Notes: a model not told the origin generated them from the letters alone. A stretch of DNA of 61,337 nucleotides from Bacteroidota bacterium (GCA_043727235.1 JAYSYX010000377.1:1-61337), one strand, 5' to 3'. Shown: positions 1-24,576, numbered from the stretch's first letter. A program made the numbers and translations.

Positions 1-937
1 GATCAAACACTTTTCCATTATCGGCAAAAAATCTTCCTAAACCATCTTCCGGAAGGTTGTAATAATCCTGAAATATGGTATCGGGTTGTGGCGGCATTAC
101 AATGCCATTATAGGGAAAGGTTCCAACAGGATCATTATAGGGAATAACGAAAGGCTCTTCATAAATATCCTCCAAATAATAAGATGGATAATATTTTTCC
201 GGAATATATCTTTGAGAATGTGGCCTGAAGAATCCCATTCCCAGAAAAAATGGTCTGCCACAAGTGTTTGCAGTGCTATCGGCATAAGCATTAATAAATG
301 CGATAGCAGTGTCGGCACCCATATAATCTTCCATTAAATACTCCATCGAATCAGGGATCATACCCCAATCAAAACCGCCTCCGAAAGCATAAGCACTGAA
401 ATCTTCAAGCAGAGAATCAGAATCTTCGAAAAACAGCATTTCGTTCCACGATAAAGTTCTTTCGCAGGGTGGAGTTCCTACAGTTTTATCGAAATCATTT
501 TCATTGGGATTGTGAAAAAGTTTATTTATTGCATAGGTAAAATATCCTGCGGAGTCTTTAAGCAATTGCGGAAAAGTAAAAACCTCTTCATTGTTATTTT
601 CCAATGTGAAATTGTCGCGGAATTTACTTTGGTAGTCTTCATTATTATATACTTGTGTATAAAAAAGATCTTTCCCACTGAAAAAACTTGTTCGGGAAGG
701 ACCGCATCCGGCAGCACTTGAATATGCATTTAGAAAAAGGGTTCCTTCTGAAGCCAGCTCTTTTACATTAGGCGTTTCAATTTGAGGTTGGTCGGTATAT
801 CCTTCAATATAATCATTCAGATCATCCACAACAATAAAAATAAAATTGGGTTGATCGGTTTGGGCATTGCAAATAGTAATTGAAAAAAGAAAAAGGGGGA
901 TAATCCAAAAATGATATTTAGATAGTTTTGTGTTCAT
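1..937 (-). CDS. Array member S0: IDS-like family-S1 sulfatase paralog, N-terminal 312 codons only (rest of gene lies beyond window start)
   Basis: Absent from the ORF track because it runs off the edge. My reverse-strand translation from ATG 937..935 stays open to position 1: MNTKLSKYHFWIIPLFLFSITICNAQTDQPNFIFIVVDDLNDY..SSAAGCGPSRTSFFSGKD..AINKLFH..FFLGMGFFRPHSQRYIPEKYY..PYNGIVMPPQPD. It is collinear with the N-termini of S4 and S7. Its start codon is 1 nt from the stop of S1. Confidence 0.85.
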   Translation of the reverse strand, partial: MNTKLSKYHFWIIPLFLFSITICNAQTDQPNFIFIVVDDLNDYIEGYTDQPQIETPNVKELASEGTLFLNAYSSAAGCGPSRTSFFSGKDLFYTQVYNNEDYQSKFRDNFTLENNNEEVFTFPQLLKDSAGYFTYAINKLFHNPNENDFDKTVGTPPCERTLSWNEMLFFEDSDSLLEDFSAYAFGGGFDWGMIPDSMEYLMEDYMGADTAIAFINAYADSTANTCGRPFFLGMGFFRPHSQRYIPEKYYPSYYLEDIYEEPFVIPYNDPVGTFPYNGIVMPPQPDTIFQDYYNLPEDGLGRFFADNGKVFD

Positions 938-938
938 T

Positions 939-3467
939 TCAACGCATGATAATTAGGGGTGATGAAATTGAATTTAACAGGCCTGTTACGCATAGGAGAT
1001 ATACACCATTTTCAAAATCTTCAACATTAAAATTGTAATAACTAGTGCCTATGTCTTGACCGAGATCAAAACGTTTAATTAGTTTACCATTCAGGTCATA
1101 CATATTTAAAACATTCCCAGATATGCCCGACTTAAGATAAATTGTAACATTATTATGTGCAGGATTTGGAATAATATATAATACTTCATCCTTAAAATAA
1201 TTAATGAGTGGTTTGTAAATGGTTTGTGTATAACTTAACACACAATCATTATTCCCATATTGGACATAACATGTGATGGTATAGGGTGCAGGTATATCAA
1301 AAGTAATTTCCTCCGGAATCTCATTATAAAATACACTGTCGCCATTTATCACCCACCAATAGAAATTATAGGAACCACTTATTTCAAAATCATTCACATA
1401 AGCTATTGAATCTGCCGAAAGAAGTTCAAATGAAAGAGTGGGTAGGTTATCTGGATTTAAAAAATAGTGCTCCATATCAAATGCACGAATAAAACCGGAA
1501 CCGGAAGTGGTATCAATTATTTGTAAATAGAATATAAGTTTTGAGTTTGTATTAAATATTGCAGTTGGAATTGAAGAGATCAGGAAGGATTCGCTTGTAG
1601 AATTAATAGTATCTGAAGTAAGATTGTTTGTCCAAATATACATTAATTCATCAGGTGGTAAAACGTAAGCTCCCAGGGTATCGAATAATTCGAACATTAG
1701 ATCTAAAGTATCAGAATAACTCAGAAAACAATCCATGGGATCTTTTTTAATAAATGCAGTGTACGTTTTTGCATTGAACATGGAACTATCAGGTAACCAT
1801 TGCTGTAAATAATCCACCACTGGTTTATAATCTGTGTTTTGTATAAGGTTATTCCATTCATTAGGGTCTATTTCTCTGTTAGCGCCGATTTCATATAATT
1901 CTTCTTCGAAATAACTATTTAGAGAATCGCAAATAGTTAATCCTCCTCCATTGGACTGGTACCTGATATAGTGAAATTGGTCGTTTCGAACAGAGTATTG
2001 AGGAAAACAAGCTCCTTCGGAATTTGATTCCTTTTTCACTCCGGATAGAATAGGTCGCTCCCAATGTTGTGTTGGTTCCTGTAAAAGAGGATAAAGTGTT
2101 TTTCCATCAAGATATTGAGAACCATCAATAAATGTCGGATAATCTGTTCCGATAAGATCACAAATAGTTGGAAAAAGATCGAGCAGACTTACCGTCGTAT
2201 TACACACTTGTTTATTAGGTTCTCTAAGATCTGAAATTATTAAAGGGACACGAATATCTGTTTCCCAAAGTGTTCGTTTACCCCAGTGTTTTTTTTCTCC
2301 CAAACCATACCCGTTATCTCCCAATAAGATTATAACTGTATTGTTATATATTTCTGGGTAAGTTTCCAGAGAATCAAGTAATCTTCCGATTTGAGCATCT
2401 AAATATTTTATTCCTGCAAGATAAGCCATTACACAATTTGCTCTTTTCGACCAGGCAAGTACATCAAGTGTAAGTGAATCGTCGAACGCAATATCAACAA
2501 GAGGTGTTGGTGAAAGATCTTCCGCCCATTCTATAAAATTATTGTCAGCACCTTTCACCATGCCTTGACCCATACTATCCAAGGGTAAATTATAATAATC
2601 AGAGAAGGGAATTTCGGGTTGCGGTGGCATAATTATTCCATTATACGGATATGAGTTTGCAGGAAAATGAAATGGTATATTAAATGGTTCCTCATAAAAA
2701 TCGGTTATATATTCCTCTTTAAAATATTTTTCCGGAATGTATAATGGTTTATGTGGTTTTTTTATTCCCAAAGCAATAAAAAATGGATCGCCACATGTAA
2801 TTGAATTATTCTGCGCGAATTGTTGAATAAAAGAAGTTGCAGAATCCACAGCAACATAATCCATCATGTGTTTTTCCATGGTATCGTTAATTGCAGACCA
2901 TTCATTATTAAATACACCTTGTTCCACTAATCCCGCGGCGATGGTAGCAGAATCGTTGTAAACAAATATTTTGTTCCATGACAATTCTTTTTCACAGGGT
3001 TCGGGTGTAATTGAATCATATTCCTGGTAATTTTCATAGCAGTGAAAAATTTTATTTAATCCGTAGGTAAAATATCCTATACTATCTTTCAGAAATCCCG
3101 GAATAGTAAAATACTCATCATTATTTCCGACTGCAGTAAAATTTTGTGCAAAATTATTGCATTTATAGCCTGCAGCGCTGTATATATTTGTGTAAGTTGG
3201 ATCTTTTCCGGTAAGAAAACTTGTCCTTGAAGGGCAACATAATGGTGCCGAACAAATTGCATTTGTAAATAGTGTTCCGTTGTCTGATATTCTGTTAATG
3301 TTTGGAGTGGCTGACTCCTGACTACCCTCCAATCCATCTATATAATCGTTGAGGTCGTCAACAACAATAAAAATTATATTGGGTTTTACGGCATCCTGAC
3401 AGAGTGCAAATAAATTTGCAAACCCCGCTATTAAGATTAGTAAGAAATGGTATGAATAATTTTTCAT
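939..3467 (-). CDS. Array member S1: secreted IDS-like sulfatase + beta module + degenerate PKD-like domain + T9SS C-terminal domain
   Basis: 842-aa ORF with ATG start and a signal peptide. Sulfatase landmarks: VDDLNDY, LCCPSRTSFLTGK, NKIFH, KKPHKP, GDNGYGLGEKKHWGK, LFPTICD, EELYEIG..DPNEWNNL. The PKD region is degenerate (WWVINGDS where paralogs have W-FGDG). C-terminal IIPNPAHNNVTIY..GVYLL resembles the Por/T9SS sorting domain. Confidence 0.9.
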   Translation of the reverse strand: MKNYSYHFLLILIAGFANLFALCQDAVKPNIIFIVVDDLNDYIDGLEGSQESATPNINRISDNGTLFTNAICSAPLCCPSRTSFLTGKDPTYTNIYSAAGYKCNNFAQNFTAVGNNDEYFTIPGFLKDSIGYFTYGLNKIFHCYENYQEYDSITPEPCEKELSWNKIFVYNDSATIAAGLVEQGVFNNEWSAINDTMEKHMMDYVAVDSATSFIQQFAQNNSITCGDPFFIALGIKKPHKPLYIPEKYFKEEYITDFYEEPFNIPFHFPANSYPYNGIIMPPQPEIPFSDYYNLPLDSMGQGMVKGADNNFIEWAEDLSPTPLVDIAFDDSLTLDVLAWSKRANCVMAYLAGIKYLDAQIGRLLDSLETYPEIYNNTVIILLGDNGYGLGEKKHWGKRTLWETDIRVPLIISDLREPNKQVCNTTVSLLDLFPTICDLIGTDYPTFIDGSQYLDGKTLYPLLQEPTQHWERPILSGVKKESNSEGACFPQYSVRNDQFHYIRYQSNGGGLTICDSLNSYFEEELYEIGANREIDPNEWNNLIQNTDYKPVVDYLQQWLPDSSMFNAKTYTAFIKKDPMDCFLSYSDTLDLMFELFDTLGAYVLPPDELMYIWTNNLTSDTINSTSESFLISSIPTAIFNTNSKLIFYLQIIDTTSGSGFIRAFDMEHYFLNPDNLPTLSFELLSADSIAYVNDFEISGSYNFYWWVINGDSVFYNEIPEEITFDIPAPYTITCYVQYGNNDCVLSYTQTIYKPLINYFKDEVLYIIPNPAHNNVTIYLKSGISGNVLNMYDLNGKLIKRFDLGQDIGTSYYNFNVEDFENGVYLLCVTGLLNSISSPLIIMR

Positions 3468-3473
3468 GTACGA

Positions 3474-5993
3474 TCAGTGGATTATGATAGGTGCCGAGCT
3501 TGTAAAAATAGGTGTTTTAAGTGTGATAAAATACATTCCCGGGCTCAATATTGTAAGATCGAGCTCATTGATAAGGAGTCCGTTCATATTAAAGTTATTT
3601 ATAAAATAAGTTCTTCCAGCAACATCTGAAATGATAATTTCCCCTTCCTCCACCAAGTCTTTGGTTGCAAGGTTAAATAAGCCATTAGAGGGGTTGGGAA
3701 AAATAAAAATATTGTTTTCATCTGCATAATTGTAGGAAAACGTTTCAATTTCTCTGCTATAGGATATAAAGCAAGTGTCGGAACTTCCAAAACTGACAAA
3801 ACTGCTTACTGTATATTTGCCGTATTCTTCATAGGTGTGTGAAACGGGTTCGGGCCCATAAAAGTAATTTCCGTCACCAAAATCCCACAATACAGAATTG
3901 TAATCCCCAAGAATTTCAATATTGGAAAAAGTGACCGTTGTTGATTGATAATCGGTATTTACTTCAAAAGAAATTTCAGGAAATTGGGCATTTGTTAAAT
4001 AAGCATAGATGAGATCAAATCCGGCTATCGTATTTGTTGATGTGTCTATCATATAGAAATAAAATATCACTCTTTTCGCAGTATTAAAAATCTGAATATC
4101 GTTGAATGTAAAATTTACTTCTGTTCCAAATATTGTATCGTCAGTAATATTATTTGTCCAATAATAAAAGTAACCTTCTGGAACAGTTGTAATAACTCCT
4201 GTAGTATCAAATATATCAAAAGACAGATTAATGGAGTCATTATAAACAAGATGGCAACTGGTTTGATCGATATTAATTTTTATATTAAAAGTTTTCTTAT
4301 TATAGAGCGGCTGTCCTGGAATCCATTGAGAAAGATATTTCACAACAGGCAGGTAATCGGAATTGCTAATCAGATTGTTCCACTCGTTGGGATCTTTTTC
4401 ACGATCAATTCCTATTTCGTATAATTCTTCTTCTACCACTGAATTGAGCGAATCGCAAGTTAGGTTTCCTTCAACATTATTCGAATGGTATTGTATATAG
4501 TGAAACCTTTCATCGCGAATGGAATATTGCTCATTGCAAGAAACTTGTTTACCATCTACTGCCATATAGGTTGTAAGAACAGGAGATTCATAATGAAGTG
4601 TACTGTCATAAAATACTGATACTAAACTTTTCCCTTCCAGGTATTTAGTGCTATCAGGAAATAGCGGATAAGGATTTAATGTCAGGTCACAAATTGTGGG
4701 AAACAAATCAAGTAAACTTACATTAATATTAGAGGTTTTTTGAACCGGATTTCTCATATCAACCATAATAAATGGGACTCTTATATCAGTTTCCCACAAT
4801 GTATTTTTTTTCCAGTGTTTTTTTTCATCTAAAGAATAACCGTGATCACTTGTAATGATTATTACCGAATTATTCAGAATTTCTGGGTACAAATTCAATT
4901 CGTTCCAAAAGCGCCCTAACTGTTCGTCAACAAATTTTACTGCCGCGAGATAGGCCATCGTTGCGTTTGCAATTTTAGATCTTGTCAGAATATTTGCAGT
5001 TTCTTCATTACTTAGTGAGTCGTTAATGGATATCAATAAACTTAAACTATCGCCCCAATTCTCAAATTCGTTGTGTACTCCCACCGACGCGAGATTTTTT
5101 CCAACAAATCCTAAACTCTCGTAATCGGAATAAGGGATCTCAGGTTGTGGTGACAATACAACACCATTATAGGGGTATGTATTGGCTGGTTCATTAAATG
5201 GAATATCAAAGGAGGGGTCTTCAAAATCGTCGATATAATAAGGGAGAAAATATTGTTCTGGAACAAATAATTCAAGATGTGGCTTATGGAATCCGAGTGC
5301 AAGAAAAATGGGCTTGTCACAATAATCGGAGGGATTTAAATCATATTCGTCTAAAAATTCCAAAGAAGCATCAGTAATATTATAATCCTGCATATCAGAT
5401 GTAAAAGATTCGTCGATCTTAGCCCAATCAAATTTGGGAACATCCTGGTCGAGTGAATCACCTTCACTAATTATTCCACCATCACTTCCTTTATATATAA
5501 CCTCATTCCATGATAATGAACGAGCACAATTGTCGTCTGTTGTTTCATCATAATCATTCAGATATTGATCTGCATGAAATATTTTATTCAAGGAAACGGT
5601 ATAATATCCTCCTTCATCTTTCAAATATTCGGGGAGGGTGGTAAAATATTTATCAGGTGGAAAATTTGATCTGAAATCCAATTCATTAAATTCTTCATTA
5701 TTATATACTCCGGTATAACCCGGATTCTTGCCTAATAAAAAACTTGTTCTGGATGCGGCACAAACCGGAGCAGAACAATAAGCATTTAAAAAAGTAGTTC
5801 CCAGCGATGCGATAGCATCCAAATTCGGAGTTTCAACCTGTGGATGTCCGCTCAAAGGTTCTATCCAATCGTTCAGGTCGTCAAAAATAATAAAAATAAT
5901 ATTTGGTTTTTCTGCGGTTTGAGCAAAATATATATGCGAGAATAATAAATTCCCTAATAATAGGAACAAAAGTGTATAAATTTGCTTTTTCAT
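3474..5993 (-). CDS. Array member S2: secreted IDS-like sulfatase + beta module + PKD + T9SS CTD (C-A-A-S-R active-site variant)
   Basis: 839-aa ORF with a signal peptide. Motifs: FDDLNDW, VCAASRTSFLLGK (Ala where Pro is usual; codons 5748..5762), NKIFH, HKPH, SDHGYSLDEKKHWKK, LWDFGDGNYF (PKD), IFPNPSNGLFNL..GMYFI (T9SS CTD). Confidence 0.9.
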   Translation of the reverse strand: MKKQIYTLLFLLLGNLLFSHIYFAQTAEKPNIIFIIFDDLNDWIEPLSGHPQVETPNLDAIASLGTTFLNAYCSAPVCAASRTSFLLGKNPGYTGVYNNEEFNELDFRSNFPPDKYFTTLPEYLKDEGGYYTVSLNKIFHADQYLNDYDETTDDNCARSLSWNEVIYKGSDGGIISEGDSLDQDVPKFDWAKIDESFTSDMQDYNITDASLEFLDEYDLNPSDYCDKPIFLALGFHKPHLELFVPEQYFLPYYIDDFEDPSFDIPFNEPANTYPYNGVVLSPQPEIPYSDYESLGFVGKNLASVGVHNEFENWGDSLSLLISINDSLSNEETANILTRSKIANATMAYLAAVKFVDEQLGRFWNELNLYPEILNNSVIIITSDHGYSLDEKKHWKKNTLWETDIRVPFIMVDMRNPVQKTSNINVSLLDLFPTICDLTLNPYPLFPDSTKYLEGKSLVSVFYDSTLHYESPVLTTYMAVDGKQVSCNEQYSIRDERFHYIQYHSNNVEGNLTCDSLNSVVEEELYEIGIDREKDPNEWNNLISNSDYLPVVKYLSQWIPGQPLYNKKTFNIKINIDQTSCHLVYNDSINLSFDIFDTTGVITTVPEGYFYYWTNNITDDTIFGTEVNFTFNDIQIFNTAKRVIFYFYMIDTSTNTIAGFDLIYAYLTNAQFPEISFEVNTDYQSTTVTFSNIEILGDYNSVLWDFGDGNYFYGPEPVSHTYEEYGKYTVSSFVSFGSSDTCFISYSREIETFSYNYADENNIFIFPNPSNGLFNLATKDLVEEGEIIISDVAGRTYFINNFNMNGLLINELDLTILSPGMYFITLKTPIFTSSAPIIIH

Positions 5994-6202: not shown

Positions 6203-6228
6203 TGAAATGCCTATCTGAGTTAGTGAAG
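6203..6228. repeat. Conserved 26-nt box, copy 1 (tgaaatgcctatctgagttagtgaag), in the long S3-S2 spacer
   Basis: By eye, 22 of 26 nt are identical to 21825..21850, including the 8-nt tgaaatgc and 13-nt tgagttagtgaag blocks at the same spacing. The box occurs only in the two long spacers of the array. Confidence 0.6.
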
Positions 6229-6285: not shown

Positions 6286-8793
6286 CTAATGTATTATTTC
6301 AAATGTCATAACATGGCTTGATTGTCTGGTAATAATTTGAAGATAATACTGACCATTCGGCCAAAACTCCGTAACTATTGAAAAATTGGCATTATTGAGC
6401 ATCGATTTTTTGTATAAAGTTTGGCCTTGCAAATTCAATATTCGAATTCCTTCAGGAATCTCATTTCCTGTAAAATCAACATAAATTTGTTGGTTTGCCG
6501 GGTTTGGATAGATATTACAATAATATTCGATATCCTCAAAAACTAATGCTGAAGTAGTAACCATGTGTTTCTTAAAACAGGAGTAATTGTTTCCAAAATT
6601 AACTGTGCAGTTAATTGTAAATGGTCCCGAATTTGTATAGGTATGTGGTGCAGGGAAGGGCCCGGTTGAGGAAGTACCATCTCCAAATTCCCAAAGTATC
6701 GAATTGTAATTTCCTGTAATATTAATATCTTCAAAACTCACGGTTAAACTATCTTGCAGAATAGAAAATGAAACTGTAGGTTCATTTTCTTCATTGATAT
6801 AAAATCTTTTTGTTGCCAATCCTACAACTAAATTATTCAGTGTGTCGATCATTTGTAACACAAAGAAAACATCTCCTTTCATGCTAAAAACATCATCTGA
6901 AATGAGTGAGAGCGGAAAACTTATAAAATTGCCATAAAATAGATCGTTTGTTAAATCGTTGCTCCAGGTATAAATAAAATTTTCAGGAGCCGGAATCAAA
7001 TTACCGATGGTATCATAAACATTAAAAAATAGTTGCAAGGTATCATCCTCCTCCAGCAAACACGCCAAAGTATTATTTTGAATTTCTAGGGAATATGGAA
7101 CTTCTAGATACATTCCGCTATCAGGTAACCATTGTCCTAAATAATCTTTTACAAGTTGATATGAACTATCATTTACAAGATTATTCCATTCATTTGGATC
7201 GGTTTGAAAATTTTCCCCTATTTCATATAATTCTTCTTCCTTCCATGCCAATGCTTTATTACATTCTAATATAGTATCCATATTATTGGAGGTATAATAA
7301 ATATAATGATATGCGTTATTTCGAATAGAATATTGTGGGAAACATGAACACTGGGCAGACGCCGTTAAGAGATGTGATGCGAGAGACGGTTTATCGATAT
7401 GCACCGCAGGGTTATTAAGCAGAGGCATTAGAGATTTTCCATCAAGATAGCCGGATCCATCAGCAAAAGTAGGATAGGGAATCTCGGTAAGATCACAAAT
7501 AGTTGGAAAAAGATCCAGTAAACTCACCGCTGAAAATGTTGATTGCGAGATAGGGTTGCGCATATCGGCAATAATAAAAGGCACCCGTAAATTATCCTCC
7601 CACATGGTTCCTTTATTCCAGTGTCTTTTTTCCCCTAAAGAAAATCCGTGGTCACTTACAAATATCAAGATTGAATTATTAAATATTTCAGGATAAGTCT
7701 GAAGTGAATCAATAAATCGTTTTACCTGTGCATCCACAAAGGAAATTGCTGCAAGATATCCGATAGTTGCATGTGCCTTTAATGATGTGTGCATTATTTC
7801 CAATCTTTCCTCCTCACTAAGTAATGGATCAAATTCGGGTAAGGGTGAATATCCATCAACTTCGCCATCAAAGCCATAATAATAATTTTCGAAATCGGAA
7901 AATGATTGACCAAGCGTTCCAAGTTTATTATAATCATTATAAATTGTATCCGGCTGTGGTGGCATTACTACACCGTTATAGGGTATCTGGTTTTCCGGAT
8001 TATTGTAAGGATAATTAAATGGTTCGGCATAAAAATCCGATACATAATCGGAGGTGAAATATTTTTCCGGAACATACCAGGGTAGGTGAGGTCTTCTGAG
8101 CCCTATAGTGATAAAAAGCGGGTTACCGCAAGTATTAATTGTTTCATTATGAAACTGATCAATAATAGTTAATGCGGTGTCGATTGCCCTGTGATCATAT
8201 AATTTATATTCAAGACTGTCGGCAATTCGACACCATGCTAATCCACTCATACCTTCATTATTTGCATTGCCATAACTCACAATAGAGGAATCTTCTTCTT
8301 TATTAAACCAGCTGTATTTGCTCCAGGATAATTCTTTGGCACAGGGATCTGCATGTATGGAATCAAAATCAGAATCAGTAGAGAAACAATGAAATATCTT
8401 ATTAATACCATATGTAAAATACCCATAATTTTTTAAATGTTCGGGTATTGTAAATATCTCTTCATTATTGTTGGCGGGACTAAAATAATCTCTGAAGGGT
8501 AAACAGGCAGGATTATAATAAATATCGGTGTATAAAAGATCTTTACCCGTGATCATACTTGTTCTGGATGGCGCACATTTAGGACAGGAGGTATGTGCAT
8601 TCAGAAAAGAAGTTCCCATGGAGGCTATCTCATTCATACCCGGAATAGAAACTTGAGGATGTCCATTCACATCTAGAGGGTAGTCATTCATATCATCAGT
8701 TAAAATGAGAAAAATATGGGGTTTATCTGCTACCTGACCAATTGCAATTACCCTGAATAAATAAAATAAGAAAAGGGGAATTATAAATTTCAT
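6286..8793 (-). CDS. Array member S3: secreted IDS-like sulfatase + beta module + PKD + T9SS CTD
   Basis: 835-aa ORF with a signal peptide. Motifs: TDDMNDY, PKCAPSRTSMITGK, NKIFH, RRPH, SDHGFSLGEKRHWNK, LWEFGDGTSS, IYPNPANQQIYV..GQYYL. Confidence 0.9.
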   Translation of the reverse strand: MKFIIPLFLFYLFRVIAIGQVADKPHIFLILTDDMNDYPLDVNGHPQVSIPGMNEIASMGTSFLNAHTSCPKCAPSRTSMITGKDLLYTDIYYNPACLPFRDYFSPANNNEEIFTIPEHLKNYGYFTYGINKIFHCFSTDSDFDSIHADPCAKELSWSKYSWFNKEEDSSIVSYGNANNEGMSGLAWCRIADSLEYKLYDHRAIDTALTIIDQFHNETINTCGNPLFITIGLRRPHLPWYVPEKYFTSDYVSDFYAEPFNYPYNNPENQIPYNGVVMPPQPDTIYNDYNKLGTLGQSFSDFENYYYGFDGEVDGYSPLPEFDPLLSEEERLEIMHTSLKAHATIGYLAAISFVDAQVKRFIDSLQTYPEIFNNSILIFVSDHGFSLGEKRHWNKGTMWEDNLRVPFIIADMRNPISQSTFSAVSLLDLFPTICDLTEIPYPTFADGSGYLDGKSLMPLLNNPAVHIDKPSLASHLLTASAQCSCFPQYSIRNNAYHYIYYTSNNMDTILECNKALAWKEEELYEIGENFQTDPNEWNNLVNDSSYQLVKDYLGQWLPDSGMYLEVPYSLEIQNNTLACLLEEDDTLQLFFNVYDTIGNLIPAPENFIYTWSNDLTNDLFYGNFISFPLSLISDDVFSMKGDVFFVLQMIDTLNNLVVGLATKRFYINEENEPTVSFSILQDSLTVSFEDINITGNYNSILWEFGDGTSSTGPFPAPHTYTNSGPFTINCTVNFGNNYSCFKKHMVTTSALVFEDIEYYCNIYPNPANQQIYVDFTGNEIPEGIRILNLQGQTLYKKSMLNNANFSIVTEFWPNGQYYLQIITRQSSHVMTFEIIH

Positions 8794-16523: not shown

Positions 16524-19040
16524 TCATTTCATTATTTCAAATTTTTTATTTCCGATAAAATTACCGGCATTTATTTTAATGATATAAGTGCCGGAAGGAA
16601 GTGCTGAAATATTAATTTGAATAATTTTATTTTGTGGAGTAATAGTTTGCGTTAAAACTACCTCGCCCAATATATTTACGATCTGTAATGTTCCATCTTC
16701 TTCAACATCCATCTCAACATTTAAAATATCGTCAACCGGATTCGGATAAATATTAAAATTTAAATAAGGCAACCCTTCTCGGGTAATGGTAATATTTTTC
16801 GCCTTGCTTTTAAGACAACCGTTACCATATTCAATATAATTTCTAATTGTATATGATCCAGGTGAAGTATAAAAATGAGTATCAGGTAGAAATTCTTCTG
16901 ATATGATACCGTCGCCAAATGTCCAATACGTATTAGTATAACTTCCTATAATATTATAGGAAACTATATCAGCACTGTTCAATACAGCATCTGTTACAAC
17001 ATTAAAAGTAGAGGATGGTGTATTTGCGCTGTTTATGGAAATGGTCTTTGTATTAAACGCAACCAACTGACCAGAAGTAAGATCAGTTACCTGGAGATAA
17101 AATATTATTTTATCGTTTGCAGCAAAAACAAGTGCAGGTATGGATGCCGTATTAAAGGTATAATTGCGACCATAAAAAATAGCTGCTGTTAAATTGTTTG
17201 TCCATTTGAACTGATAATTTGATAAAGCAGCGCCGGTAATTGCAGTTCCGTTATCTGAATATAAAAAGGATGATATTTTAACGCTGGTTGCATTACTTAA
17301 AAAACAAGGCAATGTTTTTGTGGATGTTTGAACTGTATATGCTTTTTGCAGATACAATGAGCCATCGGGCATAAATTCTTCGAGGTAATCTATTATCGGG
17401 GCGTAATTTGGATCTGCTGCAAGATTATTCCATTCGTTTGGATCAATGTCGCGATCAATTCCGATTTCATATAATTCTTCCTCGTAATAGACACTGTCGT
17501 AATCACAAATTGTAATACCAAGATCACCATTATTGTTTTTTTGATAACGGATATAATGAAATCTTTCATTTCTTACAGAATAATGCGGGAAACATCCTCC
17601 TATTCCGGTAGTTCTTTTTGTTGTAGATAAGGTTGGGTTTTCAATCAATAGATCCGGGTTGTCGAGTAAAGGAACGATGCTATGCCCGTCAAGATAATCG
17701 CTGCCATCTGCAAAGGTTGGGTAAGCAACATCCGCTAAATCGCAGACAGTTGGGAAAATATCGATGAGAGATGTGGATCTTTTGCAGATCTGATTACCTG
17801 GTTTCGTGGGGTCAACAATAATAAATGGAATCCGGAGATCAGTTTCCCAAAGCGACCATTTTGTCCAGTGCCGTTTTTCCCCGAGTGAATATCCGTTATC
17901 GCTGATTAAAACAATAATAGTATTTTCAAGAATTTCAGGATATGCCTGAAGTGTATCCATTACTTTACCGATCATGGCATCTATATATTGTACAGCAGCT
18001 ACATAAGTTGCCGCCTCATTAGAAGCAGCGGTCTGCATAAGTATATCTGTTCTTTCTTCGTCGGTTAGACCGGCATCAATGACAGGCAGCGTTGGAAGGA
18101 AATCAATATATTCGAGAAGATCTTCATAACCTTGTCCGAAATCGGCTAACTTCTGTCCAACTCCCAGATCCGGTAATTGGTAATAATCGTTGTAAATAGG
18201 TTCAGGTTGGGGCGGAACCACATGACCATTATAAGGGAAGGCATTTGCCGGAGTATTATAAGGAGCCACAAAAGGTTCTTCATAAACATCACTCAGATAA
18301 TTGGGCTGATAATATTTTTGCGGAATATACCTGTCTGAATGAGGCCGGTTATATCCCAATGCTAAAAAGAAGGGTCTTTCGCATGTGTTAAAACTGCCGT
18401 TTGCATATTCATGCAAAAATTGAACTGCACTGTCGGTCATGATATAATCCTGTAATATATTTTCCAGCGAATCAGGTATCATACCCCAGTTGAAATTGCC
18501 GAAAGAATAGTTATCCAGCAGAGTTACGATGTCTAATGTTTCACTGAAATATTTCATTTTACTCCAGGATAGATCCTTTTCACAAAAATCAGGAGTTGAT
18601 TTATCGTAATCATTTGATGCTGCATTATGAAAAATCTTTTCCAGCGCGTAGGTATAATAACCACCTGAATCCTTTAATATTTCAGGCAGTGAAAAAACTT
18701 CTTCATTGCCTTTTACTGCAGTAAAGTTGCTCCTGAATTTACCTACATAATCTTCGTTATTGAACACTTTGGTATAGGCAACGTCTTTACCCGACAAAAA
18801 ACTTGTTCGTGATGGTGCGCAACCCGGCGAATTGCTATAAGCATTCAGAAAGGTTGTTCCGCTGGCTGCAAGTGCACTAATATTTGGCGTTTCAACCTGC
18901 GGCTGCCCATCAAAACCTTCTACATAATCGTTGAGATCGTCAATCACAATAAAAATAAAATTGGGTTTTACGGGAACAACTTGTGCCGAAAGTTGTAAAA
19001 TAGAAAAAATAAAAAGGAGAAAAGTAATTCGTATTTTCAT
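16524..19040 (-). CDS. Array member S7: secreted IDS-like sulfatase + beta module + PKD + T9SS CTD
   Basis: 838-aa ORF with a signal peptide. Motifs: IDDLNDY, GCAPSRTSFLSGK, EKIFH, NRPH, SDNGYSLGEKRHWTK, NYQFKWTNNLT..FYLQVTDLTSG, YWTFGDGIISEEFLPDTH, IYPNPVDDILNV..GTYII. Confidence 0.9.
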   Translation of the reverse strand: MKIRITFLLFIFSILQLSAQVVPVKPNFIFIVIDDLNDYVEGFDGQPQVETPNISALAASGTTFLNAYSNSPGCAPSRTSFLSGKDVAYTKVFNNEDYVGKFRSNFTAVKGNEEVFSLPEILKDSGGYYTYALEKIFHNAASNDYDKSTPDFCEKDLSWSKMKYFSETLDIVTLLDNYSFGNFNWGMIPDSLENILQDYIMTDSAVQFLHEYANGSFNTCERPFFLALGYNRPHSDRYIPQKYYQPNYLSDVYEEPFVAPYNTPANAFPYNGHVVPPQPEPIYNDYYQLPDLGVGQKLADFGQGYEDLLEYIDFLPTLPVIDAGLTDEERTDILMQTAASNEAATYVAAVQYIDAMIGKVMDTLQAYPEILENTIIVLISDNGYSLGEKRHWTKWSLWETDLRIPFIIVDPTKPGNQICKRSTSLIDIFPTVCDLADVAYPTFADGSDYLDGHSIVPLLDNPDLLIENPTLSTTKRTTGIGGCFPHYSVRNERFHYIRYQKNNNGDLGITICDYDSVYYEEELYEIGIDRDIDPNEWNNLAADPNYAPIIDYLEEFMPDGSLYLQKAYTVQTSTKTLPCFLSNATSVKISSFLYSDNGTAITGAALSNYQFKWTNNLTAAIFYGRNYTFNTASIPALVFAANDKIIFYLQVTDLTSGQLVAFNTKTISINSANTPSSTFNVVTDAVLNSADIVSYNIIGSYTNTYWTFGDGIISEEFLPDTHFYTSPGSYTIRNYIEYGNGCLKSKAKNITITREGLPYLNFNIYPNPVDDILNVEMDVEEDGTLQIVNILGEVVLTQTITPQNKIIQINISALPSGTYIIKINAGNFIGNKKFEIMK

Positions 19041-19062
19041 CTGATTTTTTTAAAAGTAGGCT

Positions 19063-21570
19063 TCAAATAATTTCAATTATTTTGCTGGTAGAAGTGGTTT
19101 CTGAATTCAATTTCAGAATATAACTTCCTGCGGGTATTTTTTCAATGTCCAAATATATCAAATTTCCGGCAGGAAAAGTATTTGAACTGAATATTGTTTG
19201 ACCCAGCATGTTAATTATTTGAATTTGAGCCTGATCCGCTGACCTTTCCAATGCTATATTTACCCTTTCTGATGCGGGATTTGGAAATATCTCAAATCCA
19301 TCAGCTGTCTTGGCTTCTCTCAGAATTTCAATGTTTCTATCCACCTGCATTTCACAGCTATTTCCATATTCTATATAATTAGTTATGGTATAAGTGCCCG
19401 GAACGGAATAGAAATGTGTGGCAGGCCATAACTCCTCTGAGTTTATGCCATCACCAAACTCCCAATAACTGTCACTATAAGTTCCATTGATCACATAATC
19501 AATAATGTCTACACTGTTTTGCAGATCATTTGAATAAAGTTCAAAGCTAACTTCTGGTGTATTCAGACTATTTATATGAACTATTTTATTATTAAATCCC
19601 ATCAAAGCTCCTGTTGCCGTTTCGGTTACTTCTAAATTAAACAAAATTTCACTGTTGAGTTCAAATACTTCCGGTAAAATGGAGGCCATGTTAAAAATAT
19701 AGGTTTTACCAAAATATATATCATTGGTTATACTATTGGTCCATTTAAAAGTATAAGAATTGAGTGCTGCACCGGCCAATAAAATTCCCTGTTCATTATA
19801 AATGATGGGTATTAATTTTAAATTTCCGTTATTGGGTAAATAACATGGCAGAGTTTGATGATGAATTTTTACCGTAAAAGCAGATTGTAAATATTTTGAA
19901 CTATCAGGGAGCCATTGCTGTAAATAATGAAGAACGGATTTATAATCGTCGTTGTTTATTAAATTATTCCACTCATTAGGATCTCCCTCACGATTTCTAC
20001 CGATCTTATACAGTTCTTCTTCAGTAGTGGAGAGTTCCAGGTTGCAATCATCACCCACACCGTCATTATTTGATCTATATCTGATATAATGAAATCTACT
20101 ATTTCGCACGGAATATTGTGGGAAACAGGATGATTCCTCGGCACTTTCATGTTTATAACTGCTCAACACCGGCCTTTCAATATTGAGTTCCGGCTGTATT
20201 AAAAAAGGTGTTAGTGAATTTCCATCTAAATAATTTTCACCATCAGGAAAAACGGGCGCAGTAATTTCGGCAAAATCGCAAATTGTTGGAAACAGATCTA
20301 ATAAACTAACTGCGCTGTTGCAAACTTGCGATTGCATATTTCGATTATCAGTAATTATTAATGGTACTCGCAGGTCTGTTTCCCAAAGTGCTCTTTTTGC
20401 CCAATGTTTTTTTTCACCTAAAGAATATCCGTGGTCGCTGCTAATTATTATAACGGTATTATAATAAAGCGCAGGATTTTCTTTTAATTTTTCCAAAATT
20501 CGGCCTACCTGTGCATCAATAAAATGAATGGATGCAATGTATGCCATTACAGCATTAGCACGTTTTGATTCCCCAAGAATTATTAATCTTTCCTCATCAG
20601 AAAGTCCTTCTTCTATAATTGGTAAAGGGTCTATTGATTCGCAGTGGCCTAAAAAACCATTGTGTATATACGGACTTGCAGAACTTTGACCTAATACGCC
20701 TAAATTTTCATAGTCGTTCCAGGGAATTTCTGGTTGTGGTGGCATTACAATTCCATTATAAGGAAAAGCATTTACCGGATGGTTATAGGGTTTAATAAAG
20801 GGTTCCTCATAAATATCATCCTGATAATATTCCGGGTAATAATTTTCTGTAACATACATTGGCAAATGGGGAAGGTGATATCCCAAAGAAATATATAAAG
20901 GGCGGTTGCAAAATAAATCAGGATGGGTTATATAATCATCAATTGTTTGCAATACACTTTCCGTTGCCATATAATCTTCTAAAGAACCTTCAAAGCTGCT
21001 ATCCAATTTCGACCATTTAAACTGATTAATATCTTCATCCGTTGCTTCTGCCGCTGCATGTACTCCTGGGCCTTGGTGTGGAGTAATAAATTTATTCCAT
21101 GATTTTGTTTTAGAACAAACATCCATTGTTAAAGTATCAAATTCGTTGGAGGATACATCACAATGAAATATTTTACCAAATCCCGCGGTAAAATATCCTG
21201 CGCTGTCCTTTAGATATTGGGGTAAGGTAATAATATAATTTCCCGGAGTAAAACTTGCTCTGTAATCATTGCAATCTAAATCCTGATTATTTAAGATACC
21301 CGTATACGCTGGATCTTTTCCCGTAAAAATACTTGCACGTGATGCAGCACAGACAGGTGATGTGGCAAAGGCATTTAAAAAAACTGTACCGCTGTCAGCA
21401 ATACTTTTTAGGTTAGGAGTTTTTACTTGCGGATGTCCGTAATAGGGTTCAACATAATCATTGAGATCGTCGATCACTATATAAATAATATTTGGTTTGG
21501 TGATCTCAACCTGAGCTTGCAAATTTATTACTGCACATAGCAGAGCTGAAAATAAAAATGTGGTTTTCAT
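19063..21570 (-). CDS. Array member S8: secreted IDS-like sulfatase + beta module + PKD + T9SS CTD (C-A-A-S-R active-site variant)
   Basis: 835-aa ORF with a signal peptide. Motifs: IDDLNDY, VCAASRASIFTGK (codons 21337..21351), GKIFH, HLPH, SDHGYSLGEKKHWAK, YTFKWTNSIT..LEVTETATG, YWEFGDGINSEELWPATH, IFPNPASERVNI..GSYIL. Confidence 0.9.
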   Translation of the reverse strand: MKTTFLFSALLCAVINLQAQVEITKPNIIYIVIDDLNDYVEPYYGHPQVKTPNLKSIADSGTVFLNAFATSPVCAASRASIFTGKDPAYTGILNNQDLDCNDYRASFTPGNYIITLPQYLKDSAGYFTAGFGKIFHCDVSSNEFDTLTMDVCSKTKSWNKFITPHQGPGVHAAAEATDEDINQFKWSKLDSSFEGSLEDYMATESVLQTIDDYITHPDLFCNRPLYISLGYHLPHLPMYVTENYYPEYYQDDIYEEPFIKPYNHPVNAFPYNGIVMPPQPEIPWNDYENLGVLGQSSASPYIHNGFLGHCESIDPLPIIEEGLSDEERLIILGESKRANAVMAYIASIHFIDAQVGRILEKLKENPALYYNTVIIISSDHGYSLGEKKHWAKRALWETDLRVPLIITDNRNMQSQVCNSAVSLLDLFPTICDFAEITAPVFPDGENYLDGNSLTPFLIQPELNIERPVLSSYKHESAEESSCFPQYSVRNSRFHYIRYRSNNDGVGDDCNLELSTTEEELYKIGRNREGDPNEWNNLINNDDYKSVLHYLQQWLPDSSKYLQSAFTVKIHHQTLPCYLPNNGNLKLIPIIYNEQGILLAGAALNSYTFKWTNSITNDIYFGKTYIFNMASILPEVFELNSEILFNLEVTETATGALMGFNNKIVHINSLNTPEVSFELYSNDLQNSVDIIDYVINGTYSDSYWEFGDGINSEELWPATHFYSVPGTYTITNYIEYGNSCEMQVDRNIEILREAKTADGFEIFPNPASERVNIALERSADQAQIQIINMLGQTIFSSNTFPAGNLIYLDIEKIPAGSYILKLNSETTSTSKIIEII

Positions 21571-21824: not shown

Positions 21825-21850
21825 TGAAATGCAGGTTTGAGTTAGTGAAG
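21825..21850. repeat. Conserved 26-nt box, copy 2 (tgaaatgcaggtttgagttagtgaag), in the long S9-S8 spacer
   Basis: See copy 1. This copy lies between the S9 terminator hairpin and the S8 start. Confidence 0.6.
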
Positions 21851-21925
21851 TGTATTTATAACTCAATTTTATGGTATGGGATTGCAACCTTGGCGCTAAA
21901 GATCTCAGGGAATAAACGAATATAT

Positions 21926-21960
21926 TAAGGATATCAGACCATTATTGGCTGATATCCTTA
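21926..21960 (-). terminator. Stem-loop directly after the S9 stop; probable intrinsic terminator
   Basis: Perfect 12-bp inverted repeat taaggatatcag (21926..21937) / ctgatatcctta (21949..21960) with an 11-nt loop, starting 12 nt after the stop at 21972. On the minus strand it is followed by the moderately T-rich atatattcgtttatt. Confidence 0.6.
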
Positions 21961-21971
21961 ATACAGAAAAA

Positions 21972-24500
21972 TTATCTTACGATTTCGAATTTAGAGGTTG
22001 TGAATACTTCTTCTGATCTTAATTCAAGAATGTAAGATCCGGAAGGGATATTTTGTATGTCGATTTGTATTGATTTGTTCTGAGAATTTTTTGTGGTAAT
22101 ATAAACAACTTGTCCCAAAGTATTTAATATGAGTATTCGTGCATCCTTAATTTCATTTTGCAGGGTAATATTCAATTGAGTACTTGCGGGATTCGGATAT
22201 AATGCACATTCAAATTCAGTTAATCCATCACGCAATAAAGTTGCGCTGCGATTATAACTTTTTAAACAACCATTTCCATATTGAATATAATTAGTTACAG
22301 TGTAAACTCCCGGTGCTGTATAAAAATGTGTGTCGGGCAAATAATCTTCCGATGTACTACCGTCACCAAAATTCCAATAAGTATTGGTATAACTCCCTGA
22401 TAATGAATAAGTATTTATAGTGGTAGATAATGCAGGGATATCATTTGTAAGTGTAAAACCACCGATTGGAGTATTTGCATTATTAACAAAGTATGTTTTG
22501 GTATTAAAAGCCACAAGTTCACCGGTAGCGGTTTCCGTAACTTCGAGATAAAATAATATTCTGTCGGCACTCGAATAAACCGCAGGTGTAACTGTCAACA
22601 TATTAAAATTATAATTTTTACCGGTAAATACTGCTGCCGTTAAATTGTTTGTCCATTTAAAAGTATATCCTGCACCTGTTAATGGGGCGCCTTCAGGATC
22701 AAATAATGTTGCCTGTAATTTTATTTTGCTGTTATTTTTTAAAAAACATGGGACAGTACCTGCATTTGATATGTTTACTATGTGTGCTTTTTGAAGATAT
22801 AATGCACTGTCAGGTAAAAACTGATGCATATAATTTACCACAGGTGCATAGGCAGGATCATTTATTAAATTATTCCATTCATATGGATCTGTTTCGCGAT
22901 TAACTCCCATATCATATAATTCTTCCTCGCTAAAACTTGCTGTCTCATCGCACGTTAAAAGTGGCGGAGTATTATTGGTCTGATATTTAATATATTTAAA
23001 TCTGTTATTGCGTATACTGTATTGCGGAAAACAAGAAGCTTCATTTATCATACCCATCGGATTTTTTGTTTTAACGGTGGAGAGAGATGGTTTTTCCCAC
23101 ATTAATTCAGGGTTGTTCATTAAAGGTAAAAAACTATGTCCATCAAGATATCTTCCACCAGCTGCAAATGTTGGTTCAGGAATATCAATAAGGTCTAAAA
23201 TTGTTGGGAAAATATCGAGAGTGCTTACACTTTTACCACAGGTTTGAGCAACAGGATTACGCATATCAGTAAAAACCAACGGGACTCTAACATCAGGTTC
23301 CCACATGGAAAATTTACCCCAGTGTCTTTTAGTTCCAAGAGAAAAACCATGATCAGAAGTTAGAATAATTACACAATTATTATAAATTTCAGGATGTGCT
23401 TGCAGCGCAGTTAAAAATCTTCCTAATTCATAATCCAAAAAATTAATACCCGCTTTGTATGCTAAAATGGCATTGGCCCTTTCTGTTTCATTTATTATTT
23501 CAATTCTTTCTGCATCACTTATACCAGCTTCAATTTCCGGCAGGGTAATTAAACTTTCACCATAATCATCAAAGAGCTGAGCTTCATTGTCGGAAGCAAA
23601 TAACTGTCCCATGTATCCCAGTGAATCGTAATCCGCCCAGCGTGGGTCCGGTTGAGGCGGCATAACAAGTCCGTTATATGGAAAAGCATTATAAGGTTCA
23701 TTATATGGTTTGTTAAAGGGTTCAGCATAAATATCTTCTACATAATCATCATCGAAAAAACTCTCAGGAACATAAAAATTTGCATGCGGTTTTTTAATTC
23801 CTAATCCGAGGAAAAAGGGATTTCCGCAAGTAACAGATGGCCCGAATTCTGCGAAATCATCAATAAATTCTATAGCTGCATCTACGCTCACATCATCTTC
23901 CATATAATCAATTAAAGTATCGTCGAGACGCGCCCATTTTAAGGTAAAAATCCCTTCATTTTCCGCATCACCTATCGGATTGATGATATCATCTTCCACA
24001 TAAACAAAAGCATTATTCCACGATAATTCTTTTAAACATGGATCGGGTGTTTCGGCATCATAATCAGAAAATGCTTCATAACAATGAAATACTTTTCCAA
24101 TTGAGTAAGTATAATAATCTGCATTATCTTTTAAATATCCGGGCAAGGTGTATACTTCACCATTTCCATCTGCCACCTGAAAATTTTTTCTGAAATTATA
24201 ACATGCATAACTTGTATTGTCATATACCTGAGTGTATAAAACGTCTTTTCCGGTAACAAGCGAAGTTCTTGCCGGAGCACATTTTGGTGAAGCACAATTT
24301 GCATTTGTAAAAACAGTTCCATTTTGAACCAATGTATTTAAATTTGGTGTTGAAGCCTGAGGAAAATATTCGTAACCTTCCATCATGGTATTCATATCAT
24401 CCATAGTAATTAAAATGATATATGGTTGCGTAGGAGCCTGTGCCAATGAAAGCAAGGTAAAAAGGGAAAAGAAAATGGAGAAAGTTAAATATTTTATCAT
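21972..24500 (-). CDS. Array member S9 (first transcribed): secreted IDS-like sulfatase + beta module + PKD + T9SS CTD
   Basis: The track ORF is 21972..24530, but its first codon is TTG. I prefer the ATG at 24500 (MIKYLTFSIFFSLFTLLSLAQA, a signal peptide). Motifs: MDDMNTM, PKCAPARTSLVTGK, GKVFH, KKPH, SDHGFSLGTKRHWGK, YTFKWTNNLT..LEVTETATG, YWNFGDGSTSEDYLPDTH, LYPNPASTQLNI..GSYIL. Confidence 0.9.
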   Translation of the reverse strand: MIKYLTFSIFFSLFTLLSLAQAPTQPYIILITMDDMNTMMEGYEYFPQASTPNLNTLVQNGTVFTNANCASPKCAPARTSLVTGKDVLYTQVYDNTSYACYNFRKNFQVADGNGEVYTLPGYLKDNADYYTYSIGKVFHCYEAFSDYDAETPDPCLKELSWNNAFVYVEDDIINPIGDAENEGIFTLKWARLDDTLIDYMEDDVSVDAAIEFIDDFAEFGPSVTCGNPFFLGLGIKKPHANFYVPESFFDDDYVEDIYAEPFNKPYNEPYNAFPYNGLVMPPQPDPRWADYDSLGYMGQLFASDNEAQLFDDYGESLITLPEIEAGISDAERIEIINETERANAILAYKAGINFLDYELGRFLTALQAHPEIYNNCVIILTSDHGFSLGTKRHWGKFSMWEPDVRVPLVFTDMRNPVAQTCGKSVSTLDIFPTILDLIDIPEPTFAAGGRYLDGHSFLPLMNNPELMWEKPSLSTVKTKNPMGMINEASCFPQYSIRNNRFKYIKYQTNNTPPLLTCDETASFSEEELYDMGVNRETDPYEWNNLINDPAYAPVVNYMHQFLPDSALYLQKAHIVNISNAGTVPCFLKNNSKIKLQATLFDPEGAPLTGAGYTFKWTNNLTAAVFTGKNYNFNMLTVTPAVYSSADRILFYLEVTETATGELVAFNTKTYFVNNANTPIGGFTLTNDIPALSTTINTYSLSGSYTNTYWNFGDGSTSEDYLPDTHFYTAPGVYTVTNYIQYGNGCLKSYNRSATLLRDGLTEFECALYPNPASTQLNITLQNEIKDARILILNTLGQVVYITTKNSQNKSIQIDIQNIPSGSYILELRSEEVFTTSKFEIVR

Positions 24501-24576
24501 TTGTGTGTTATTTGGTGGCGAATATAACAACTCCTTTCTAATTTTACAATTATTAATCAGTTAAAAACATATTTAA

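Follow-up and report, generated by a model that had tools for sequence, protein, structure and literature searches.

Tandem arrays of sulfatases predicted to be secreted by the type IX system in uncultured Chitinophagales

A tandem array of sulfatase paralogs

We analyzed a 61-kb stretch of DNA (61,337 nucleotides; JAYSYX010000377.1, hereafter the window) from an uncultured Chitinophagales bacterium, in which positions 1-24530 are occupied by nine complete open reading frames (ORFs; 939-24530, 835-852 aa) and one partial ORF, all located on the minus strand and all encoding paralogous sulfatases, denoted S0 through S9 from left to right. The domain architecture, catalytic residues, fold, and sorting domains of these proteins, together with the synteny, age, and purifying selection of the copies, can be read directly from the data, and from these features we infer secretion, enzymatic activity, the class of substrates, divergence of specificity, and regulation. 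The explanation that we favor, and regard as probable, is that the ten genes encode formylglycine-dependent S1 sulfatases that are exported by a type IX secretion system (T9SS) and would constitute a desulfation battery outside the cell, independent of any polysaccharide utilization locus (PUL). Extracellular action is suggested by the sorting domain, and diversified specificity by hypervariable loops of the catalytic domain.

At the left edge of the window lies S0 (1-937, in frame 2-937), of which the N-terminal 312 aa are encoded before the gene leaves the window. It is followed by S1 (842 aa; 939-3467), S2 (839 aa; 3474-5993), S3 (835 aa; 6286-8793), S4 (840 aa; 8842-11364), S5 (840 aa; 11409-13931), S6 (839 aa; 13969-16488), S7 (838 aa; 16524-19040), S8 (835 aa; 19063-21570), and S9 (21972-24530). 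The S9 ORF measures 852 aa from a TTG codon at 24530 or 842 aa from an ATG codon at 24500, and the latter is probably the true start because the 88%-identical ortholog J1 is also 842 aa long. From S0 to S9, the spacers between the genes are 1, 6, 292, 48, 44, 37, 35, 22, and 401 nt. The copies display 37-61% pairwise amino-acid identity, with best DNA identities of 63-70%. An earlier note on this DNA, prepared from the sequence alone, had reported ORFs of 835-852 aa separated by 1-48 nt apart from two long gaps. The nine complete ORFs and the spacers are as described there, the gaps measuring 292 and 401 nt, and the length given for S9 should probably be corrected to 842 aa.

Predicted secreted sulfatases with complete active sites

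The organization recognized in S2 through S9 can be illustrated with S4, the copy chosen for structure modelling, which consists, in minus-strand order, of a putative signal peptide (aa 1-22; 11299-11364), a sulfatase domain (aa 23-560; 9685-11298), an immunoglobulin (Ig)-like module (aa 566-676; 9337-9669), a putative PKD domain (aa 677-757; 9094-9336), and a type A T9SS C-terminal domain (CTD; aa 765-840; 8845-9072). The Pfam domain Sulfatase (PF00884) was detected in all ten copies with E values of 2e-19 to 1e-43 (70-150 bits against a cut-off of 25; 2.4e-19 for the truncated S0), and SGSH_C was matched by each of the nine complete ones. The extreme C termini of the same nine proteins matched Por_Secre_tail (PF18962) with 30.6-55.8 bits (cut-off 27) and the NCBIfam model TIGR04183 with 26.9-43.7 bits (cut-off 23), ending within a few residues of the model end. 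In NCBIfam, no type B CTD model (TIGR04131) was matched at E<=0.01 by any copy or by the terminal, PorP-adjacent copies of the related arrays discussed below. The N termini, with a charged start, a hydrophobic stretch, and a site of the A-Q-V type, are putative Sec signal peptides; in the AlphaFold2 model of S4, residues 2-18 form a helix.

PKD or PKD_4 (PF00801/PF18911) scored over the gathering threshold in S2, S3, S5, S7, and S9 and under it in S4, S6, and S8; in S4, aa 677-757 are modelled as a beta-sandwich. S1 combines the sulfatase domain, Ig-like module, and type A CTD with a degenerate PKD region that yields no match at all and also lacks the W.FGDG motif. Thus, the common architecture that had been proposed in the earlier note holds for the sulfatase domain in all ten copies and for the sorting domain in nine, but not for the PKD domain of S1, which is absent by Pfam. 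The profile searches suggested there returned PF00884 and TIGR04183 and placed the N-terminal domain among formylglycine-type S1 sulfatases, and the claim that every complete copy is addressed to the T9SS agrees with the type A sorting domain at the end of all nine.

Sulfatases of the S1 family require conversion of the cysteine in the C-x-P-x-R motif into formylglycine by an anaerobic sulfatase-maturating enzyme (anSME) or a formylglycine-generating enzyme (FGE). Among the copies, this motif takes the forms CCPSR, CAASR (S2 and S8), CAPSR, CGPSR, and CAPAR, with the cysteine and arginine constant in all ten and in 118 family members. The residues D34, D35, C74-x-(P/A)-x-R78, K135, H138, H235, D382-(H/N)383, and K395 (S4 numbering) are present in all nine complete copies, and S0 retains those of its N-terminal part (DD, CxPxR, K..H, and PH), in agreement with the earlier claim that catalytic residues are kept throughout. 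Across the 118 family members, D34, D35, C74, R78, K135, H138, H235, D382, and K395 are invariant, and position 383 is either H or N. In HMMER alignments, the catalytic set of S4 corresponds to D45, D46, C84, R88, K135, H138, H229, D334, H335, and K347 of human iduronate-2-sulfatase (I2S), in what we take to be the numbering of the I2S literature after correction for the chain offset.

Besides the formylglycine cysteine, C153, C484, C580, and C743 of S4 are invariant, and C221 and C513 nearly so, among the 118 family members; of these six residues, one belongs to the Ig-like module and another to the end of the PKD domain. The six are candidates for disulfide bonds that may staple the domains together, which would suit an extracytoplasmic protein. 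Variability within the catalytic domain clusters in four segments (aa 156-185, 291-315, 456-480, and 501-515) around a nearly invariant core, a pattern that fits divergence in substrate recognition without proving it.

Fold of the catalytic domain and a family-specific Ig-like module

The AlphaFold2 model of S4, built with 118 homologs (pLDDT 93.7, pTM 0.85), shows a sulfatase domain with an alkaline-phosphatase-like alpha/beta fold and a C-terminal subdomain. In Foldseek searches, the best matches were the I2S structures 5fql and 6ioz, followed by the S1_7 ulvan sulfatase FA22070 (6hhm), at E ~1e-27 and 21-22% identity; the probability was 1.0 for 5fql, 6hhm, and ~440 other chains at E<=0.001, and the top 50 listed were all of the sulfatase type. 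By sequence, the best solved structure was again I2S (1e-30), with 6hhm next, in line with the by-eye correspondence of landmarks to human I2S on which the earlier note had relied. Members of S1_7 top both the sequence and the fold searches, but identity is ~21-22% and the scores are close to those of other subfamilies. The catalytic domain is thus predicted to be nearest to SulfAtlas S1_7 and, at ~21% identity, may represent a separate subfamily.

The phosphonate monoester hydrolases 4uph, 2vqr, and 4upk also appear among the Foldseek and PDB matches, and there are weak matches to Phosphodiest and PehA, as might be expected if the catalytic domains were promiscuous phosphonate- or phosphate-monoester hydrolases of the same formylglycine branch of the alkaline-phosphatase superfamily. 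This assignment is highly improbable given that carbohydrate sulfatases of S1_7 come out best in both the sequence and the fold comparisons, that Sulfatase and SGSH_C are matched far more strongly than Phosphodiest, and that the sulfate-binding K/H/K set is complete.

The segment between the sulfatase and PKD domains (aa 566-676 of S4), whose structure the earlier note had left to prediction, has no match in Pfam. Modelled alone, it forms a confident Ig-like beta-sandwich (pLDDT 94). No close structural relative was found with Foldseek, the best matches (E 5e-3, TM score ~0.5) being to domains of the generic FN3, Ig, PKD, and GH2-Ig kinds, plus a single porphyran-binding carbohydrate-binding module. 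A profile search against 1.84 billion representative proteins retrieved 63 clusters, nearly all with the match at residues ~560-680 of ~840-aa proteins or fragments thereof. Because the matches are nearly confined to the same position in proteins of this size, we consider the module a family-specific Ig-like domain and reject the possibility that it is a widespread mobile one.

The copies are old and maintained by purifying selection

In a neighbor-joining tree of 61 family members, each copy from the window groups with its orthologs from other metagenome-assembled genomes (MAGs) rather than with its neighbors in the array; hence, the duplications pre-date the divergence of the species. Twelve ortholog pairs gave dN/dS values of 0.04 to 0.12 (Nei-Gojobori method, with frequent saturation of dS), which indicate that all copies are under purifying selection. 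Loci in the assemblies of relatives are designated with L-numbers (L001, L003, and so forth). Orthologs in L003 are 84% identical to S1 (dN/dS 0.09) and 71% identical to S2; the S6 ortholog in L012 is 69% identical, those of S7 in L003, L012, and L083 are 77-81% identical, and identity for S8 is 68-80%. Judged by the tree and the substitution rates, these paralogs are of long standing, are conserved as orthologs in other MAGs, and are subject to purifying selection.

Gene content differs among the related loci. L012 encodes orthologs of S9, S8, S7, S6, and S4, with the S5 ortholog missing between the last two, and L003 contains S8, S7, an S5/S6-like copy, and then S2, S1, and S0, without S4 and S3. 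An array on contig JADJIS010000002.1 shares S9, S8, and S7 with the window at 77-88% identity and carries four distal copies that are just 44-61% identical to any window copy. On the evidence of these orthologs, the array is stable in its proximal part and undergoes rapid turnover of its distal copies from one close relative to the next.

The contig stops inside S0, and MAG assemblies can mis-join repeats, such that the array might be thought artefactual or made up of duplicates in decay; we assign this a practically negligible probability. The copies share at most 70% DNA identity, so that collapse or expansion of repeats during assembly is of no concern, and 19 or more independent assemblies contain equivalent arrays, one of them on a contig of 1.57 Mb. 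An assembly artefact was rejected on these grounds, and decay was rejected because none of the nine ORFs is disrupted, dN/dS does not exceed 0.12, and the two long gaps contain no pseudogene remnants (best blastx E value 0.43). The intact ORFs, low dN/dS, and presence of orthologs in other MAGs substantiate the view, already expressed in the earlier note, that the copies are maintained and not decaying.

Arrays of 2 to 10 copies occupy a conserved chromosomal site

Among 185,579 species represented by one genome each, full-length relatives (>=40% identity, ~840 aa) were found only in uncultured Chitinophagales/Bacteroidota MAGs, namely, 15 species-level assemblies, to which 4 further known assemblies can be added. 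The next tier consists of ~500-aa single-domain sulfatases with 28-31% identity, mostly from Verrucomicrobiota and Planctomycetota. In databases, family members are named only as 'sulfatase-like hydrolase/transferase' or 'arylsulfatase A-like enzyme'. Shorter relatives of ~676-680 aa are encoded elsewhere in the same MAGs (L022:9968-11995, L023:9965-12004, L026:7635-9668); they align over the sulfatase domain only (aa 1-580, 46-47% identity) and appear to be without the Ig-like and PKD domains.

Members of this lineage typically carry tandem arrays, with six copies inside 15 kb in L003, five in L004, L007, L012, and L019, and four in L002 and L016. Those bounded on both sides comprise 2 (L006, L010, L020), 3 (L008, L011), 5 (L004), or 7 copies, the last on the 1.57-Mb contig JADJIS010000002.1 (L081 13671-19112 plus L083 2095-15059), which shares clusters of housekeeping proteins with the window at 90% identity. 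The ten copies of the window are the largest array seen. The earlier note had taken ten as a minimum. In L003, the closest relative, the sulfatase that directly precedes the PorP/SprF gene is an S0 ortholog with 90% identity across the available 312 aa, and because of this synteny the window array most likely ends with S0 and totals ten genes, the PorP/SprF gene being located just past the left edge.

The site of the arrays is conserved, with holB-PSP1-gldH and an ExoIII-like gene on one side and a PorP/SprF gene directly past the last sulfatase on the other. In the window, the ExoIII-like gene (Pfam Exo_endo_phos; 24577-25344, plus strand) forms the proximal boundary, and gldH, which encodes a gliding/T9SS lipoprotein (Pfam GldH_lipo, E 3e-33) and is syntenic in relatives, lies at 26279-26764 on the minus strand. 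GC content is 0.34-0.36 throughout the array, the same as in the rest of the window, and, together with the chromosomal position kept across species, lends no support to a recent horizontal island. The PorP/SprF gene (TIGR03519, 170 bits) is co-oriented with the sulfatases and adjacent to the last of them in every relative in which the end of the array is visible (L003:15218-16246, L001:9746-10777, L083:15211-16239, and also L002, L004, L006, L008, L010, L011, and L020). Its identity amounts to 79-87% among eight MAGs and to 57% in a ninth, surpassing any pair of sulfatase orthologs across the same genomes; because it is so much more conserved than the sulfatases, this neighbor may simply be a core gene.

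The ExoIII-like gene adjoins or sits within the array in L004-L008, L010-L012, L019, L020, and L079-L082. It lies inside the array on the opposite strand in L010 (9914-15961), L011 (4235-12727), L019 (1209-15055), and L020 (3220-9192), and in those MAGs an S9-type copy is located between gldH and the ExoIII-like gene; the window keeps all copies on one side. The 401-nt gap between S9 and S8 may mark a rearrangement of the ExoIII-like gene.

The placement of the arrays between gldH and a very conserved PorP/SprF gene in nine relatives, together with the Ig-like and PKD stalk, raises the question of whether the proteins are mainly surface adhesins or gliding-associated proteins that bind sulfated glycans, with the PorP/SprF-like protein as a dedicated shuttle or anchor and catalysis secondary. 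PorP/SprF-like genes are typically linked to the cargo that they shuttle (PMC12618676, PMC9143113): type B CTDs depend on cognate PorP/SprF-like shuttles, whose genes frequently lie next to those of the cargo, and PorV is the shuttle for type A CTDs, whose cargo is subsequently set free or fixed to the cell surface. In the sulfatases, the CTDs are of the PorV-handled type A rather than type B (PMC12618676), the catalytic residues are all invariant and strongly constrained by purifying selection, and the proteins are far smaller than known gliding adhesins, all of which makes an adhesive role quite improbable. Because type B cargo is what PorP/SprF normally serves, this gene may be tied to the array by position only.

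A bolder proposal is that the array, the PorP/SprF gene, and gldH form a dedicated surface-display unit that would provide the lineage with a 'desulfating coat', dense and open to diversification, PorP/SprF being a specialized shuttle or anchor despite the type A CTDs. Such a coat would strip sulfate from polymers outside the cell, for instance glycosaminoglycan-like exopolymers of sludge or mucins, ahead of community-level degradation, amounting to a PUL-independent, public-good turnover of sulfated glycans in which the turnover of distal copies would be an adaptation to local substrates. We consider this unlikely, although not implausible.

Proposed mode of action and substrates

T9SS cargo crosses the inner membrane via Sec and the outer membrane via the T9SS with the aid of its C-terminal domain. 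The statement that the organism has T9SS/gliding machinery is based on gldH, on the PorP/SprF genes of relatives, and on a second type A cargo in the window (689 aa; 46818-48887, minus strand) that comprises a lysyl-oxidase-like segment together with an Ig_7 (CHU_C-associated) domain, rather than on porKLMN or sprA. If the array encodes a battery of exported S1 sulfatases, as we propose, each protein would be produced with a Sec signal peptide, the cysteine of C-x-(P/A)-x-R would be converted into formylglycine by a maturase encoded elsewhere in the genome, and the protein would fold in the periplasm, whereupon the type A CTD would be recognized by the T9SS, leading to release or surface anchoring. 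The Ig-like module and the PKD domain might keep the catalytic domain off the anchor or help to bind the substrate. The paralogs would then strip differently placed sulfate esters from external sulfated glycans, opening the latter to other enzymes, and the battery would have grown by tandem duplication at a fixed site flanked by the gldH/ExoIII-like genes and the PorP/SprF gene.

The class of substrates is a guess from the habitat. The names of the MAGs, such as an MBR activated-sludge bin and a bin from Randers, which we take to be tied to wastewater plants, suggest activated-sludge and other engineered or fresh-water sources. Mucins, glycosaminoglycans, food carrageenans, and sulfated exopolymers of microbes would all be available in a wastewater-type habitat; candidate substrates would be mucin or glycosaminoglycan-type polymers, food or algal galactans, and the sulfated microbial exopolymers of sludge flocs.

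The scan of the window covered the ORFs of 150 aa or longer, except for a 416-aa ORF at 60035-61285, as well as three shorter ORFs. Neither SusC/SusD, whose adjacent pair defines a PUL, nor a recognizable regulator gene was found among these ORFs or in the array flanks of relatives, so that the array does not qualify as a PUL. The earlier note had reported no flanking SusC/D, glycoside hydrolase, regulator, or maturase, and this holds for the scanned ORFs of the 37 kb to the right and for the flanks in the syntenic relatives.

Several of these observations weigh against the proposed extracellular desulfation of polymers. No glycoside hydrolase that could act as a partner enzyme, and no maturase (anSME or FGE), is encoded by the scanned ORFs of the window or in the flanks of relatives. 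The closest characterized relatives, I2S and FA22070, are exo-acting pocket enzymes, and only ~21% identical; for extracellular work on polymers, an exo-sulfatase is not the obvious choice. Furthermore, the adjacent PorP/SprF gene is of a type that normally serves type B and not type A cargo (PMC12618676).

Some of the same facts would suit secreted sulfatases that act on small sulfated molecules, such as aryl, steroid, or bile-salt sulfates, sulfated oligosaccharide ends, or sulfated peptides, or that scavenge sulfur or carbon, instead of contributing to polysaccharide breakdown. The nearest structural relatives being exo-acting pocket enzymes, the absence of glycoside hydrolases and SusC/D nearby, and the best partial NCBIfam matches, which are to arylsulfatase and choline-sulfatase models, all point in this direction, and conjugated sulfates are plentiful in the wastewater-type environments to which most of the MAGs belong by name. 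However, the NCBIfam matches are far under the equivalog cut-offs, up to ten long-kept divergent paralogs imply many distinct substrates, stalks of Ig-like and PKD domains with T9SS display are typical of polymer-degrading enzymes, and sulfate is rarely limiting in such habitats. We therefore regard a role confined to small molecules or scavenging as unlikely, and continue to prefer the desulfation of external glycans.

An intergenic motif and putative transcription units

The two long gaps each contain a copy of the bipartite motif CTTCACTAACTCA-N5-GCATTTCA, at 6203-6228, 210 nt upstream of S2 in the 292-nt gap, and at 21825-21850, 255 nt upstream of S8 in the 401-nt gap, both on the minus strand; against these two matches in the window, 0 are expected by chance. 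The earlier note had made no mention of this motif. Across loci, the consensus is TT(C/T)(A/G)CTAAC(T/C)CA-N5-6-(G/T)CA(T/A)TTCA, located 100-255 nt upstream of certain genes and holding TTCAC-like direct repeats about two helical turns apart. The motif precedes the S8 orthologs in L079-L082 (~16.3-16.5 kb), the S2 ortholog in L003 (L003:7243), the first sulfatase in L004 (L004:7385), an S4-like gene in L018 (L018:420), and two genes for beta-propeller T9SS cargo in L001 (L001:836).

The motif is probably a regulator-binding site or a promoter region that would divide the array into about three transcription units, S9, S8-S3, and S2-S0, the last two of which are preceded by the motif. A scan for sigma-70 promoters and terminators gave no enrichment over shuffled sequences, and the search for the Bacteroidota -7 box TAnnTTTG upstream of each gene gave a single match and was uninformative. 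The motif matches no Rfam family, and no Rfam family was detected in the window.

The two L001 genes (L001:1166-2764 and 2788-4401) are located directly upstream of the sulfatases and encode ~535-aa paralogs, 46% identical to each other, both of which are SBBP-type beta-propellers with type A T9SS CTDs. One of them has a weak arylsulfotransferase-like Pfam match (E 6.5e-5), under the cut-off.

Other genes and variable regions of the window

The 37 kb to the right of the array encode housekeeping functions, including the ExoIII-like protein, an ankyrin protein, GldH, PSP1, HolB, glutathione peroxidase, PTPS, OsmC, a MoxR/Bat operon, RpoN, AsnRS, 2-oxoacid:ferredoxin oxidoreductase, HipA, and others. 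The ankyrin-repeat gene lies between gldH and the ExoIII-like gene (25594-26127). In L079-L082 (~11.3-12.9 kb), it is replaced by a gene for a 166-aa protein without a Pfam match followed by an AAA_14/DUF4143 ATPase gene, and the gldH/ExoIII-like interval is thus a second variable spot beside the array.

Positions 52000-56524 may represent a small accessory island. This region is of low GC content (0.29 at 52-54 kb) and contains two ORFs without Pfam matches (52611-53588 and 53697-54488). Next to them is hipA (55220-56524), a toxin-kinase gene with a small ORF in front of it (54866-55210).

Significance and comparison with known systems

Sulfate esters block most glycoside hydrolases, and the organism that removes them controls access to sulfated glycans. 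To our knowledge, in the models studied so far, Bacteroidota perform desulfation inside the cell envelope within SusC/D-based loci. The locus described here suggests another route, in which a single T9SS-fused sulfatase subfamily has been amplified to 2 to 10 copies at a fixed site. Should the enzymes be active extracellularly, glycan analysis and biotechnology would gain stable secreted sulfatases of varied specificities, and these uncultured Chitinophagales would become candidate primary degraders of sulfated polymers in sludge flocs; the arrays of 2, 3, 5, 7, and 10 copies, with their fast distal turnover, would then offer a natural series for the study of how tandem duplication diversifies specificity. 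The family-specific Ig-like module and the adjacency of type A cargo to PorP/SprF bear on the biology of the T9SS as well. In the literature on T9SS-secreted sulfatase arrays, extracellular Bacteroidota sulfatases, and activated-sludge sulfatases, we found no description of this family or arrangement. In the genomes of relatives, arrays of this kind are common, being present in at least 15 species-level MAGs and 4 further assemblies.

With the characterized S1/S1_7 enzymes, I2S (5FQL) and FA22070 of Formosa agariphila (6HHM), the array proteins share the C-x-(P/A)-x-R motif, the full set of metal- and sulfate-binding residues, and the two-subdomain alkaline-phosphatase-like fold. They differ in being ~21-22% identical to these enzymes, in having ~110 extra loop residues in the N-terminal subdomain, and in the addition of ~280 aa at the C terminus, comprising the Ig-like, PKD, and T9SS sorting domains. 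The ~500-aa sulfatases of Verrucomicrobiota and Planctomycetota possess the next-closest catalytic domain (~28-31% identity over aa 1-560) but lack the Ig-like/PKD/CTD tail and form no homogeneous tandem arrays in the loci examined.

Sulfatases of PULs are usually encoded by single genes that belong to different S1 subfamilies and are scattered amid SusC/D, glycoside hydrolase, and regulator genes, and they are mostly periplasmic enzymes or lipoproteins. In Bacteroides and marine Flavobacteriia, the PULs for mucin, glycosaminoglycans, carrageenan, ulvan, and fucoidan resemble the array in S1 chemistry and would resemble it in having several specificities cooperate on one substrate class, whereas the array consists of one subfamily, is devoid of SusC/D and glycoside hydrolases, and is addressed to the T9SS. 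Closer in organization are the 'PUL-free' carbohydrate-active enzymes (CAZymes) exported as T9SS type A cargo in Flavobacterium, Cytophaga, and marine Bacteroidota, a route treated as an established concept in the portion of PMC10792170 that cites McKee et al. 2021. These proteins likewise combine a catalytic domain, Ig/PKD spacers, and a TIGR04183 CTD behind an N-terminal signal peptide, which is putative in the array proteins, and the array genes, too, are located outside any SusC/D locus; the differences are that the cargo here is a sulfatase and not a glycoside hydrolase or lyase, and that it is encoded in a homogeneous tandem array of up to ten genes at a conserved site. The pairs formed by SprB-SprF and by the Fjoh type B proteins (PMC12618676, PMC9143113) resemble the arrays of the relatives in having a co-oriented PorP/SprF gene directly downstream of the cargo, but the CTDs of the array cargo match the type A model TIGR04183.

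The chemistry and fold of S1 sulfatases and the export of type A cargo by the T9SS are known already, and the array is not a new category. Its departure from the described systems is the fusion of one sulfatase subfamily to a family-specific Ig-like module, a PKD domain, and a sorting domain, and the arrangement of these fusions in homogeneous tandem arrays of 2-10 genes between two gliding/T9SS genes.

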